64,000 nucleotides of DNA. Source: a virus (Duplodnaviria; Heunggongvirae; Uroviricota; Caudoviricetes). A program made the position numbers and the translations under genes. The notes below the pieces were generated by a model. That model was not told the DNA's origin. It was given only the letters and a program-made list of their open reading frames with translations, and ran no database searches. Position 1 is the first letter of the stretch, and each line of letters begins with the position of its first letter. The stretch lies in IMG/VR virus record IMGVR_UViG_3300027710_000009; one strand, 5' to 3'. Positions 24,436 to 51,574 of this stretch are shown one piece after another.

Positions 24436-24762
24436 TTATACTCGAAAACTTTCCCCGCATCCACAGCGGTCTCGTTCGTTGGGATTTGAAAAGTCAAACC
24501 CTTCATTCAATCCATTGCGCACGTAGTCTACTTCTAGACCATTCAAGTAAACTGAGTCTTTACCGTTTACCCAAATTGTTGCGCCATGGTGTTCATACTT
24601 GAACCAGTCTCTTGTGACTGGCACATGATCTATGTATTCTAACACATAAGCCATGCCAGAGCAACCAGTAGTTCTAACTCCTATGCGTATGCCCACCCCA
24701 GTGCCACGCTTGGCTATGTTGTCTGTGATTTTCTTTGCCGCACGTTCAGTTAGAGTGATCAT
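24436..24762 (-). CDS. iscA: Fe-S cluster A-type carrier IscA
   Basis: ITLTE.AA, TGCSG.AY, F.F.NPN...CGCGESF. Confidence 0.95.
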   Translation of the reverse strand: MITLTERAAKKITDNIAKRGTGVGIRIGVRTTGCSGMAYVLEYIDHVPVTRDWFKYEHHGATIWVNGKDSVYLNGLEVDYVRNGLNEGFDFSNPNERDRCGCGESFRV

Positions 24763-25129
24763 GTTTGCTCTTATAATCAATTATGGCTGCTTTGATAGCA
24801 TCTTCTGCTAGAATTGAACAATGTATTTTTACTGGAGGTAGAGCTAGTTCTTCGGCGATGTCAGAGTTTTTGATTGATCCTGCTTCGTCAAGTGTTTTTC
24901 CTTTGACCCATTCAGTAACCAAACTCGAGCTTGCAATGGCTGACCCGCAGCCATACGTCTTGAATTTTGCGTCCGTGATGATGCCATCTTGCACCTTTAT
25001 CTGTAGTTTCATTACATCACCACACGCAGGTGCTCCTACCATGCCGGTGCCAACTGTGTCGTCAATTTCTAACTTGCCCACATTGCGTGGGTTTTCATAA
25101 TGATCAATTACTTTGTCGCTGTATGCCAT
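24746..25129 (-). CDS. iscU: Fe-S cluster scaffold IscU
   Basis: YSDKVIDHYENPRNVG, GAPACGDVM, KTYGCGSAIAS, LPPVKIHCS. Confidence 0.97.
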   Translation of the reverse strand: MAYSDKVIDHYENPRNVGKLEIDDTVGTGMVGAPACGDVMKLQIKVQDGIITDAKFKTYGCGSAIASSSLVTEWVKGKTLDEAGSIKNSDIAEELALPPVKIHCSILAEDAIKAAIIDYKSKHDHSN

Positions 25130-43938: not shown

Positions 43939-45069
43939 TTACCCAAGTTTATGGTTAAAATAAATAATCTTCCGGCTGTTCTGCACCATGAGTGATTTTT
44001 CTGCGCCGGCCAACAACCCAGCATGACTGATCAGTAACGGGATAGTGTCAAGCTCTCGCATGACCTTGTGTGTCCATATCACTGGTGCATCAGATACATT
44101 TGTTTTGTTTTTGTTGCCTTGAACTTCTACGTTTTCTGTGCCCAATAGCTCAAGGTATTTTTGATCACTGCCGCTGGCACTAGGGTCAAACACAATCATG
44201 GGCAATCTATTTACCAGCTGTGCATAGGCAAACAGCCTGGGTATTTGTCCAAAATCTCCAATGAGTTCGTAACTGGACTTGCGTATGAACACACTGATGT
44301 CTGGACCAGCAATGTGATCAACTTCTGCCCACACACTGTCACTGATAGTGTAGCCTAGCTCACTGCCTAGGTCAGCCAGTCGCAGTAGATTATCATCTGT
44401 AAAATCCACACCTTGTTCTGCCAAGTACTCTAGCAAACTTGATTCAGCGTTTTCAATTCTAAGTTGACCATTGATTCGTGTTAGTTCAATTGCATAAGTC
44501 TGTTGTTCTGCGGCTAGAATCTCATCCATGATCTCACTCAGCTCTTCGCTGATCTCAAACTGGTTGGCCTTGGCCCAGGCCACAACAAAATTTACATTGA
44601 ACTCGCTCAGTGCAATGTTCCAGCTTTTTTCTTCTTTGTCAAATTGTGCAAAGCCTTGTCGTTGTTGTAGCAACTCTCTCAACTGTTGAATCATTTTAGT
44701 GTCGTAAGGAAACTTCAACACCATATGGTCGCCGTCAACCCAACAACGTCGACTCCGGTCAAGCATGCGCAAGGGTTTACGATACTGTGGCGCCGCCATT
44801 GGCTCAATGTTGATTCCTTTGCTGGCCAGTTGTCGTTGATACTTGAATATCAACTTCAAGGCAAGGTCGGCTTGACGATCAGTTAGTGCGCCTGAGCCGA
44901 GTGTGTGGTCAGTAACACTGTCAAGAAAGGATGTGTCATAACGTGCTAGGCTTACAATAGGATCAAACTCATAGCCAAGCCAACCAGAGCTCTTGACATT
45001 GCCTTGTGCAATATCTCTTTTGCCGGCTATCACTTCTAAATAATCTTCGACCGTAGGAAAGGTTTTCAT
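43939..45069 (-). CDS. Hypothetical protein (likely start MKTF at 45069)
   Basis: Long ORF; TTGACT-17-TACAAT promoter just upstream of 45069. Confidence 0.75.
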   Translation of the reverse strand: MKTFPTVEDYLEVIAGKRDIAQGNVKSSGWLGYEFDPIVSLARYDTSFLDSVTDHTLGSGALTDRQADLALKLIFKYQRQLASKGINIEPMAAPQYRKPLRMLDRSRRCWVDGDHMVLKFPYDTKMIQQLRELLQQRQGFAQFDKEEKSWNIALSEFNVNFVVAWAKANQFEISEELSEIMDEILAAEQQTYAIELTRINGQLRIENAESSLLEYLAEQGVDFTDDNLLRLADLGSELGYTISDSVWAEVDHIAGPDISVFIRKSSYELIGDFGQIPRLFAYAQLVNRLPMIVFDPSASGSDQKYLELLGTENVEVQGNKNKTNVSDAPVIWTHKVMRELDTIPLLISHAGLLAGAEKSLMVQNSRKIIYFNHKLG

Positions 45070-45101
45070 GCTGTATTGTAACACCTGCATAAACAGAAGT
45101 C

Positions 45102-45132
45102 AAAAAAAAGCCCTATCATTTCTGATAGGGCT
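45102..45132 (-). terminator. Rho-independent terminator of the AAA gene
   Basis: 10-bp stem, GAAA tetraloop, T-run. Confidence 0.9.
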
Positions 45133-45200
45133 GTTAAGGGGGTTGTGGAAAGGAGCTAACAAACCACAACCATTAAACGGAATAGTATCCGCTTAATTCT
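45102..45200 (-). ncRNA. Structured 3' UTR / candidate sRNA: two hairpins plus terminator, middle loop carries anti-SD GCUCCUUU
   Basis: GGTTGTGG-TTTGTTAGCTCCTTT-CCACAACC then AGCCCTATCA-GAAA-TGATAGGGCT-T7. Confidence 0.5.
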
Positions 45201-46244
45201 TTACGCAACCTTCATACAGGTTGTACGTGCCATTTTTTCCCAGCTGTTAGGAAAGCTCTTGTACAGTTGAGCAATCTTGATTGCCATACGCAAGCTCATT
45301 TCACGCAATGCATTCTTGTTGGCATCCATGAACTCAATAATCATGTCTTGACCAACATCGCTGATGTCCATGTCTTCGAACAAAGCACCAGTCTTGGCAA
45401 TTTGCTTGATACGCAACAACTTGTCACGCATGGTGTCCAGAGTCAAGTCAAGATAGTGACAACGTGACTGCAATGCATCCAAGTGGTCCTTGAGCTTCTG
45501 GCTCTTCATCTTGTCAAACTTCATGTTGGTGATAAACACAACAGAGCCTTTGAACTCAAAGCTGTCTGGGATGCCTTCGCGGCGCAATGCACTTGACTCT
45601 GACAACCAAGAAATCTTACGCTTCTTGCCCGAGTCCAAGGCACCCTTTAACAGGTTCAAACTAACGTCATCTAACAAAATACTGTCGCAGTCGTCAAACA
45701 CAACCACACAATTCTCATCCGAGTACTTGTACAGAGTTTGGAACAAGCCAATAGGAGTAGCAGAGCCTTTGACAACTTCTGCGCGAAGCCTGCGGCCTGC
45801 GATAGTGTCAAACAGGGTAGCCTTTTCGATCTCTTGCTCTACACCGTATGACTTACCAACTCCAGGAGGGCCACTCACAATCATTGCACGGATGTCGCCA
45901 GCCACAGCGGCCTTGGTCATCTCTGTAAGCATTTCAAAACGCTCGGCAATATCAGCCATGCGTTCTTCGTCAGTTTGTGACGCTTGCACAACTGCTTCAA
46001 CATCTGAGTCCATGGGTGCAACAACACCTTCAAAATCGCCTTCACCGGCAAACTCGTAGTCTGTCATGCCTTCAACTTTGACACGGATTTCTTCTGGAAA
46101 GCCAGGAAACTTGCCACCGTTCTTCACAGTAACATAACCACCTTTGGCAGTCATCTTAAACTGCTCTACGAGCTGGAACACTTGTCCAGACACGTCTGTT
46201 GCACGATAAGCACCTGACTTGATACGGATGAATGCTGTTGACAT
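45201..46244 (-). CDS. AAA+ ATPase, early
   Basis: GPPGVGKS, VFDDCD, FITN, ALQSR; own sigma70 promoter and AAGGAGC SD. Confidence 0.88.
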   Translation of the reverse strand: MSTAFIRIKSGAYRATDVSGQVFQLVEQFKMTAKGGYVTVKNGGKFPGFPEEIRVKVEGMTDYEFAGEGDFEGVVAPMDSDVEAVVQASQTDEERMADIAERFEMLTEMTKAAVAGDIRAMIVSGPPGVGKSYGVEQEIEKATLFDTIAGRRLRAEVVKGSATPIGLFQTLYKYSDENCVVVFDDCDSILLDDVSLNLLKGALDSGKKRKISWLSESSALRREGIPDSFEFKGSVVFITNMKFDKMKSQKLKDHLDALQSRCHYLDLTLDTMRDKLLRIKQIAKTGALFEDMDISDVGQDMIIEFMDANKNALREMSLRMAIKIAQLYKSFPNSWEKMARTTCMKVA

Positions 46245-46286
46245 TTAAGGGCTCCTTTTTTATGTCGTTTGTTTAACTTAACCTAT

Positions 46287-46315
46287 AGTATAGCAAAAAC
46301 GGGCTTATTGGTCAA
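46287..46315 (-). promoter_or_regulatory. Early promoter TTGACC-17-TATACT
   Basis: Consensus hexamers, shared spacer GCCC motif. Confidence 0.85.
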
Positions 46316-46451
46316 CCGTTTGTGTTGCTTGTTCTACAAGAATTTGTTGCGAAAAAACAACACCGCCGTTGGCTACTTTATACATCTCTGCTACATCTTT
46401 GACGTAAAATTGCATGATTTTACCTTGTGCAGTGATAAGAGTGTATTGCAT
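46305..46451 (-). CDS. 48-aa early peptide MQYTLITAQGKIMQFYVKDVAEMYKVANGGVVFSQQILVEQATQTVDQ (not in ORF track)
   Basis: Own promoter (46484-46512) and GGAGC SD. Confidence 0.75.
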   Translation of the reverse strand: MQYTLITAQGKIMQFYVKDVAEMYKVANGGVVFSQQILVEQATQTVDQ

Positions 46452-46483
46452 TTAGCGGCTCCGTTTGTTTAACTTATGCATAT

Positions 46484-50779: not shown

Positions 50780-51150
50780 TATGCTACCTTTCTGAAATAA
50801 CCGTAGGGCAGGCCTACACAAAAACAAAAATATTCAAAGTCGCCTGTGGCGCCTTCGGCATCCATAAGCCATGCAATCACACGCTCACGGTTGGTACCAG
50901 GGTGCATGAGATTTGCCACACGGTCTTCAAACTCCACAATGGCACGAGCTTCGGCCTCTCGGCGAGCAATTTCTTCTTGCTCAATGGCACGACCCAGCAC
51001 CTTGAACTCAGCGTCAAAGTCCTCAAGGGTCCAAGCGGACGTATCAACACCACGTGGGCGAACGCCATAGGCATCCTTGTACATGTCCCAATACATGCAT
51101 TGGGCTTGCTCTAGTGCAGACAACTCTTCCCAACTTTTGAACTGTTCCAT
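50779..51150 (-). CDS. Conserved phage early hypothetical protein
   Basis: DMYKDAYGVRPR...GLPYGYF; AAGGAGC SD. Confidence 0.8.
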   Translation of the reverse strand: MEQFKSWEELSALEQAQCMYWDMYKDAYGVRPRGVDTSAWTLEDFDAEFKVLGRAIEQEEIARREAEARAIVEFEDRVANLMHPGTNRERVIAWLMDAEGATGDFEYFCFCVGLPYGYFRKVA

Positions 51151-51179
51151 CTTGGCTCCTTATTACTTAATATACTTCG

Positions 51180-51216: not shown

Positions 51217-51545
51217 TATACCTTGGCAATCCTGTACGTAACCCCTTGATTTGTTAGTACTTTTGTAATACCTTGGGCTTCGTAGTCCTGCTCCAACAGG
51301 GCTAGATTCTTGCGATCCCGAACTGTGGGCTTGTCAATTTTGATTGCAATAAACTTGGTGCGAGGGTTGATGTAGATGCCTTTTGCAGAGTAGCAAAGTT
51401 CCAGGCCCAGCTTCATGCGTTCGGCACGAACACGCTCGGCGTCGGTGTAGTGACTCCACATTGCAGTGGCTCGCATGCGAGCGTCACGTGCGGCGGCGTA
51501 GGCATAGTAGCCTGCGCTTTGTGTGTCTAGCTCTTTTTCTTTCAT
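51216..51545 (-). CDS. Early hypothetical protein
   Basis: Own promoter and AAAGGAGC SD. Confidence 0.8.
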   Translation of the reverse strand: MKEKELDTQSAGYYAYAAARDARMRATAMWSHYTDAERVRAERMKLGLELCYSAKGIYINPRTKFIAIKIDKPTVRDRKNLALLEQDYEAQGITKVLTNQGVTYRIAKV

Positions 51546-51574
51546 GCTGGGCTCCTTTGTTTAACTTAGCCTAC

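Follow-up and report, generated by a model that had tools for sequence, protein, structure and literature searches.

The early nrdC.10-like AAA operon of a family of large, uncultured phages ends in what, judged by comparison across relatives, is a conserved RNA structure, and the loop of its central hairpin is complementary to the translation start of the AAA gene at the head of the same operon. That this pairing between loop and AAA start is real we regard as very likely. Its probable consequence is repression of AAA translation, and feedback on the operon's own start by a 3′ hairpin loop is the explanation that we consider best and hold to be probable. The element was identified in a window of 64,000 nucleotides (the whole stretch of DNA that was analyzed, IMG/VR record IMGVR_UViG_3300027710_000009, Caudoviricetes).

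On the minus strand of the window (45102-45203), the AAA stop codon (TAA, 45203-45201) is followed by hairpin 1 (10 bp, 45172..45197), hairpin 2 (an 8-bp stem with a 15-nt loop, 45141..45171), and an intrinsic terminator (45102..45132; a 10-bp stem at 45132-45109 and U8 to 45102). The three consecutive hairpins described in an earlier note on this DNA, including the perfect middle stem and the strong terminator behind it, are thus all present. The three stems appear in both the MFE and the centroid fold (z -4.9), none of 200 shuffles folds equally well, and the terminator at 45132-45109 is also called by a scan. The arms of hairpin 2, GGUUGUGG (45171-45164) and CCACAACC (45148-45141), enclose the loop UUUGUUAGCUCCUUU (45163-45149), of which 14 of the 15 bases are predicted to be at least 0.75 unpaired. 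The loop part GCUCCUUU (45156-45149) is complementary over 8 nt to AAAGGAGC in the AAA translation start region (AAAGGAGC-CCUUAA-AUG, 46242..46258, minus strand), which is the predicted loop target. Shuffled loops reach a match of at least 8 nt in 633 of 20,000 trials; by itself, the 8-nt match in the window is weak evidence, and it is counted as nonrandom because of the comparative data across relatives. At the target, four bases of AAAGGAGC are predicted to be merely 0.01-0.2 unpaired owing to a small local stem. A 4-bp mini-hairpin, AAGG/CCUU, is possible at 46257-46247 (minus strand), and CCUU or CUUU spacers occur in many starts of this clade; these spacers may account for the lack of complementarity between loop and spacer in the window. 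Searches of Rfam 15 (including Cuckoo/ar14, C4, and 6C) with window positions 44900-45400 and with 13 loci of different types gave no match at the gathering score. The contigs of four RNA runs cover parts of the AAA gene and of downstream genes, and the element lies outside their coverage.

The AAA gene itself (45201..46244, minus strand) encodes an AAA-type ATPase of 347 aa, a homolog of T4 nrdC.10 (PHROG 1250), with full-length similarity to T4 NrdC.10 (30.7% identity, E 5e-41) and a P-loop AAA core. The match to Pfam PF00004 (23.2 bits) is just above the cut-off of 21.2, RFC is the sole match in a PDB profile search (E 0.065-0.077), and an Atlas search returned viral AAA clusters without names and nothing else. 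For T4 nrdC.10, the relevant passages of PMC1524935 note the AAA motif and nothing more. The gene is preceded by a sigma70-type early promoter (46287..46315, minus strand; TTGACC-17-TATACT, extended TG) 42 nt upstream, with a predicted start near 46280, and the same layout is found before AAA homologs. Upstream lies an early gene of 48 aa, the start region of which (46449..46462, minus strand; from sequence and promoter scan) carries GGAGC; transcription of this gene would continue as far as the AAA-operon terminator. Downstream, the terminator U-run doubles as the -35 box of the next gene's promoter (45069..45103, minus strand), in which TTGACT overlaps the U-run and TACAAT stands 5 nt before the ATG at 45069. 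This arrangement recurs in 183 of the 227 loci carrying the element, and the next gene is predicted to be leaderless. Predicted leaderless genes, with a -10 box 5-7 nt before the ATG, are found in the window at 45103-45069, 43897, 38159, 12628, and 11932, two helicase genes among them. Elsewhere in the window, an IscU-like gene (24749-25129, minus strand) is ~85% identical to Burkholderiales proteins, which are the closest among the matches listed (4 of 64 parts scanned); this is a hint at a Burkholderiales host, not an identification. Judged by translation, its neighbors resemble IscA, ClpX, ClpS, and a small heat-shock protein.

AAA loci of relatives were taken from contigs of viral and metagenomic origin, in overlapping sets that comprise the best 80 of 166, 80 of 193, and 80 of 401 matches, 10 of 10, and 17 pattern matches, and genome-wide tests were made on relatives' genomes; the contigs reach 374 kb, and one is a complete genome of 355 kb. 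Of 267 loci in which the gene end is complete, 227 have a loop hairpin ahead of their first terminator according to an automatic rule. RNAalifold on 12 close relatives gives 26 pairs with two-sided changes in 13 and a nearly fixed loop, and G-U pairs are kept among the covarying stem pairs. In hairpin 2, all alignment cells (100%) are paired and three of eight pairs show two-sided changes; hairpin 1, which is present only in this subclade, shows them in 6 of 10. A 19-mer spanning the loop has 17 exact matches, 16 of them just behind an AAA gene. Where small genes are inserted behind the AAA gene, the element still closes the operon, as much as 1578 nt beyond the stop, and gene and element have the same orientation in every locus read.

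The stem covariation anticipated in the earlier note is therefore borne out in relatives (13 of 26 pairs), whereas the invariant CUCCU loop that it expected gives way to about ten loop/start types, each loop being complementary over 8-12 nt to its own AAA start. The window's clade combines loop GCUCCUUU with start AAAGGAGC. The other types pair GGUUGGCUCC with GGAGCCAACC, GUCAGCUCCU with AGGAGCUGAC, CUAGCUCCU with AGGAGCUAG, UGGCUCCUU with AAGGAGCCA, GACUCCA with UGGAGUC, ACUCCUG with CAGGAGU, UGCUCCC with GGGAGUA and, with a bulge, GUUC-GGCUCC with GGAGCC-U-GAAC. A further type, loop UUUCUAGCCC and start GGGCUAGAAA, is not anti-Shine-Dalgarno (SD) at all. A quick protein tree with 78 rows places the origin of several types inside clades of a different type and shows two of them interleaved. 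When this non-SD loop (UUUCUAGCCC) was used as the query of a loop-first scan, 87 matches were obtained, 29 of them behind an AAA gene; the rest comprise 49 without a stem or an AAA gene in the fetched DNA and 9 with a stem and the upstream part cut off. All 23 visible starts of this loop type read GGGCTAGAAACCATG, the loops standing behind GGGCUAGAAACC-AUG.

The same relation is seen in a blind test that compared the 45 nt ahead of the first strong terminator with the locus's own start. From 266 loci, 13 without a start and 20 without a called terminator were removed, leaving 233 and, from these, 123 distinct pairs (the starts of five loci were set by hand). Perfect complementarity of at least 7 nt was found in 109 of the 123 pairs compared with 207 of 2460 shuffles (8%), and of at least 9 nt in 77 of 123 compared with 16 of 2460, counts that overstate independence because the loci are related and partly redundant; the longest perfect match among the 123 is 12 nt. 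The 14 low pairs comprise six in which the rule took an earlier hairpin (the true element there matches over 10-11 nt), three with an inserted terminator, and five real exceptions (loci L018, L022, L211, L356, and L360). L018 pairs only with a bulge, and L022 and L042 reach 6-7 nt. Across 16 hand-picked types, exceptions included, the duplex of a loop with its own start is at -14.9 kcal/mol compared with -12.1 for foreign starts (permutation p 6e-5), and the longest loop/start match gives p 5e-6; only three rows and four columns of the 16x16 matrix have the own loop as best partner. Moreover, GGGCTAGAAA occurs only twice in the 114-kb genome G006, once in the start site and once in the loop. 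The sole clear mismatch is L211, a 1496-nt contig that joins a GGGCTAG start to the GGUUGGCUCC loop. The 5′ half of its AAA gene is 90-99% like that of L048 and the 3′ half 85-100% like that of L020, a pattern that would fit either a crossover inside the AAA gene or an assembly chimera. Since the loop tracks its own start both across the types and in the blind test, the conserved target is the AAA gene's own start and not the host SD.

The element has limits within the wider group of nrdC.10 homologs. No element was found within 3 kb of the AAA gene in L013 and L014, nor in the distant loci L356-L360. The AAA start of L013 and L014 (genomes G008 and G016) has no GGAG and their early genes almost never carry GGAGC; it is possible that the whole circuit was lost there. 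In the cultured homologs T4, VAP7, and PBECO4, the best 3′ match is only 5-6 nt (5 nt for T4 nrdC.10), and in two Rhodobacter phage homologs, it is only 4 nt. The Roseobacter phages RDJL Phi1, Phi2, and RDJL6 (L365:2284-2340, L369:1430-1490, and L366:1424-1490) have GTCGCTGG(T) between the nrdC.10-like stop and the terminator. In all three, it is an 8-9-nt complement of the gene's own 5′UTR adjoining the SD, and in RDJL6, it reaches CTCC. In Pseudomonas phage PA5oct, an 8-nt complement of the gp126 start lies 23 nt past the gp126 stop (L081:4176-4183), inside a 9-bp stem without a terminator, and may be a chance match. The start of the distant relative L355 is a near-perfect complement of the window's entire 15-nt loop (-23.1 kcal/mol), as though an earlier version of the target were still preserved in the window loop. 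Finally, a 34-kb record (G013; L162:2501-2519, minus strand) from an apparently unrelated virus, with no AAA homolog at the locus, has between two of its genes a perfect 8-bp stem that encloses the very same 15-nt loop. One start there carries AAAGGAGC and gives the second-best duplex of 25 genes, and either convergence or chance would account for the identity.

How might such a pairing work? The operon runs from a sigma70-type promoter through the AAA gene, behind which small genes are in some cases added, to the loop hairpin and the intrinsic terminator. Because the loop is transcribed last, its action would be delayed and would scale with transcript number. Ribosomes would load freely until the tail exists; pairing of the tail over the SD and spacer would then shut initiation, so that output would follow ongoing early transcription. 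Together, the delay and the rising number of transcripts would amount to negative feedback on the ATPase. The tail may also reach further molecules of the same message, probably in the form of a ~95-nt fragment cut at GA/AUU past the stop, in the manner of CarZ, and in the window's clade the same RNA might, if so, also damp some ten further early genes led by GGAGC.

Whether the tail acts on its own molecule or on others bears on the most probable of the alternatives, a strict head-to-tail closure of the kind suggested for icaR, in which the tail of the finished mRNA folds back over the start of that molecule, without a free small RNA and without further targets. We consider this doubtful rather than improbable; it is a variant of own-start feedback that differs in mode only, and its probability is counted inside that of the broader explanation. 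It agrees with the position of the element at the AAA operon end (16 of the 17 exact 19-mer matches), with the UUUCUAGCCC type, in which no other early GGGCTAG start was seen, and with a pairing length of 8-12 bp, about the capacity of a 12-20-nt loop. It also agrees with the promoter data: a scan of the minus strand from 46244 to 45200 detected no sigma70 site, and TAAATA within 70 nt of the loop stem is absent in 123 of 123 loci. A stand-alone RNA transcribed from its own sigma70 or TAAATA promoter was therefore rejected as a candidate, neither promoter having been found; the element is accordingly either the end of the operon transcript itself or a fragment cleaved from that transcript. Three observations point away from strict closure. 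First, a terminator and early promoter cassette is inserted directly after the AAA stop in L224, L234, L235, L239, and L241. In L224, L234/L235, and L241, this terminator-like hairpin (-12 to -13 kcal/mol, U6) and new early promoter separate the AAA gene from the loop, and the loop/start match is still 11 of 11. The inserts have diverged from one another. The retained match favors action in trans, although read-through or a (recent) module exchange could also be its cause. Second, GAAUU at the foot of hairpin 1 (45195..45199, minus strand) fits the RNase E consensus RN/WUU (given in PMC7398697) and may be the site at which a 3′ RNA of ~95 nt is released. In the three-hairpin subclade, it reads GAATT in 16 of 17 distinct variants and GATTT in the 17th, so that RN/WUU fits all 17, while family-wide this degenerate motif precedes the loop stem in 59 of 123 loci compared with 32% in shuffles. 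Third, GGAGC is enriched at early starts, as described below. On balance, we lean slightly toward an element capable of acting in trans over one closed strictly within its own molecule.

Action in trans raises the question of which other starts the loop could read. On the minus strand of the window, AAAGGAGC occurs only at 46258 (AAA gene) and 51558 (early gene 51545, start region 51543..51558, a possible second trans target), in agreement with the complementarity reported in the earlier note. The shorter matches given there were also found, AAGGAGC at 51161 (early gene 51150, start region 51148..51161, minus strand, a possible further trans target) and GGAGC at 46462 (gene 46451); an additional AAGGAGC at 1344 went unmentioned and belongs to a gene without an early promoter. 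The plus-strand copy of AAAGGAGC is, as had been stated, no real RBS, start codons being absent after it; an antisense ORF using this copy was considered and rejected, as there is no start codon in the window and a chance ORF in G003 only. The complementarity of the loop to the early starts of the AAA gene and 51545 is confirmed. With a crude gene caller, the AAA start ranks third among the window's 91 genes, the best loop duplex being that with gene 51545. In three relatives, G003 (470 genes), G005 (251), and G006 (198), no real loop partner surpasses the AAA start; the entry above it in G003 is an ORF antisense to the loop. The rank of the AAA start is 9 of 246 in G001, 12 of 489 in G011, and 6 of 73 in G009, and in G004 this start lies outside the top 14 of 324. 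The window's clade has the least specific loop, with a match confined to the shared 8-9 nt AA(A)GGAGC. A dedicated second target for the 5′ half of the loop was rejected: an early gene of G011 pairs over 14 nt with a bulge, its homologs do not retain the pairing, and of 121 matches to AAGGAGC(N)TAACAAATG (about a quarter of the collection scanned), none stands behind the family's early promoter.

In the window, G001, and G011 pooled, C follows GGAG in 11 of 13 early genes except AAA compared with 35 of 156 other genes (p 1e-5), and in G003 in 7 of 10 compared with 9 of 62. In G006 and G008, which have no GCUCC loop, the counts are 0 of 10 early genes compared with 9 of 99, and in a complete genome where no element was detected, GGAGC stands at 0 and GGAGU at 7 early sites. 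The enrichment is not significant in G004, G005, and G009, in which the loop does carry GCUCC and early GGAGC amounts to 2 of 10, 1 of 4, and 0 of 2; in four GCUCC-loop contigs, 22 early sites read GGAGC and 23 otherwise. Early promoter cassettes resemble each other, and the enrichment is possible without selection because similar cassettes could be copied. Damping in trans of about ten other GGAGC-led early genes in the window's clade is a tentative proposal. Its extended form would be a phage-private riboregulon, which we put forward with some reserve: GGAGC would tag early genes, and the RNA from the operon tail would read the tag and damp the early class in trans without a repressor protein. 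The RNA has G where the host 16S tail has C, which on this doubtful reading would make the tag private to the phage. Host-like and late GGAGA/G starts as well as leaderless genes might then be spared, a possibility of similarly low standing, and, just as speculatively, loop and tag might drift jointly into private codes, even non-SD ones.

A different outcome of a real pairing would be that it protects or stabilizes the message, or shields GGAG from a RegB-type nuclease, rather than repressing it. The Bacillus subtilis hbs message, as presented in PMC7821165, is a precedent for protection, and a hairpin-rich 3′ end would favor stability. The paired region in the phage operons, however, spans the SD and the spacer up to the start codon. 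Pairing over this stretch normally blocks initiation. Moreover, the GGGCUAG type has no GGAG to shield; a search for RegB gave no match in five genomes, although it carries little weight since the control was equally silent. We therefore judge protection improbable.

Less probable still is the role proposed in the earlier note, a general anti-SD small RNA that, as it builds up, represses SD-led messages of the host and of the phage's early genes; leaderless phage mRNAs would then be spared. The loop end GCUCCUUUC is one base off the 16S tail CCUCCUUUC of five of five Burkholderiales genomes, leaderless genes are present in the window, and the Betaproteobacteria toxic sRNA (RF02278) gives a weak Rfam match of 23.7 bits, which is carried mostly by the terminator part and is far below the cut-off of 50. 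Opposite the position of the host consensus GGAGG, however, the loops carry G or A and not C, and an entire loop type is not anti-SD and tracks the AAA start only. In contigs with this non-SD loop, the other early genes keep GGAGU, GGAGA, or GGAGC (two of these contigs have two GGAGC sites each), and because they do so beside such a loop, a general anti-SD role is not the conserved feature; neither it nor a role directed at the host is upheld by the comparison. That there is no RNA function, only a DNA-level inverted repeat or co-inherited flanks, is very improbable: double crossovers inside the gene do leave the flanks of one parent joined, a possible cause of the matched types that are interleaved on the tree, and there is one mismatched recombinant (L211), but co-inheritance cannot newly create complementarity in about ten types, the stems covary as RNA pairs with G-U kept, and the orientation of gene and element is identical in every locus read.

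Feedback on an mRNA by its own 3′ end is documented in a handful of bacterial cases (CarZ, OppZ, and icaR), and the phage family supplies what these lack, namely natural compensatory changes at two sites separated by 1.1-2.6 kb, among them a change to a code that is not SD. The naturally matched and mismatched loop/start pairs could be used to address action in cis or in trans, and the RDJL Roseobacter phages offer a cultured system for testing. Synthetic biology may also find in the element a compact, orthogonal part for feedback control, and the element would be a sign that the dosage of the widespread, uncharacterized NrdC.10 ATPase must be kept tight. The regulon reading, if true, would represent a protein-free end to early gene expression in large phages. 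A search of the open-access literature found no description of the element and no phage precedent, although this leaves absence unproven.

Among known systems, T4 nrdC.10 encodes a protein homologous over its full length, and the T4 gene, unlike the operons described here, has no such 3′ element. The Betaproteobacteria toxic sRNAs of RF02278 are described as short, stand-alone intergenic RNAs with a CUCC motif before a terminator (PMC4603805). The phage element shares a CUCC motif and a terminator in a short RNA and likely the host group; it differs in scoring below the gathering threshold, in that a sigma70 or TAAATA promoter of its own was not found, and in that CUCC is not constant in the family. 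In Staphylococcus aureus icaR, a pyrimidine motif in a 3′UTR of ~390 nt pairs with the SD of the same mRNA through a complementary region of ~40 nt that is an RNase III substrate, and cis and trans action were left open (PMC3868564); this pairing is reported not to be conserved even in S. epidermidis (PMC7821165). Here, too, a 3′UTR motif is complementary to the SD of its own mRNA. In contrast to icaR, the element has no RNase III-type duplex of ~40 nt (the longest perfect match among the 123 pairs being 12 nt), and it is a compact structure of 100 nt whose match of 8-12 nt persists, with covariation, throughout a large family of phages.

CarZ derives from the 3′UTR of carAB and pairs with the carA 5′UTR in Vibrio cholerae, and OppZ is released by an RNase E cut right behind a stop codon (Hoyos et al. 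2020, PMC7398697). Like both, the phage element lies in an operon 3′UTR and shares its intrinsic terminator; like CarZ, it can be matched to the start region of the gene that heads the operon from which it derives; and at the position past the stop where OppZ is cleaved, it carries a conserved RN/WUU, which is a motif only. Unlike CarZ and OppZ, it is found in large phages with an AAA ATPase of uncharacterized role, its seed is presented in a dedicated loop of 12-20 nt, and its support comes from natural compensatory change and not from experiment. We do not file the element in the CarZ/OppZ or the icaR class. Nevertheless, it likely works most like CarZ and like the 5′-3′ pairing of icaR.
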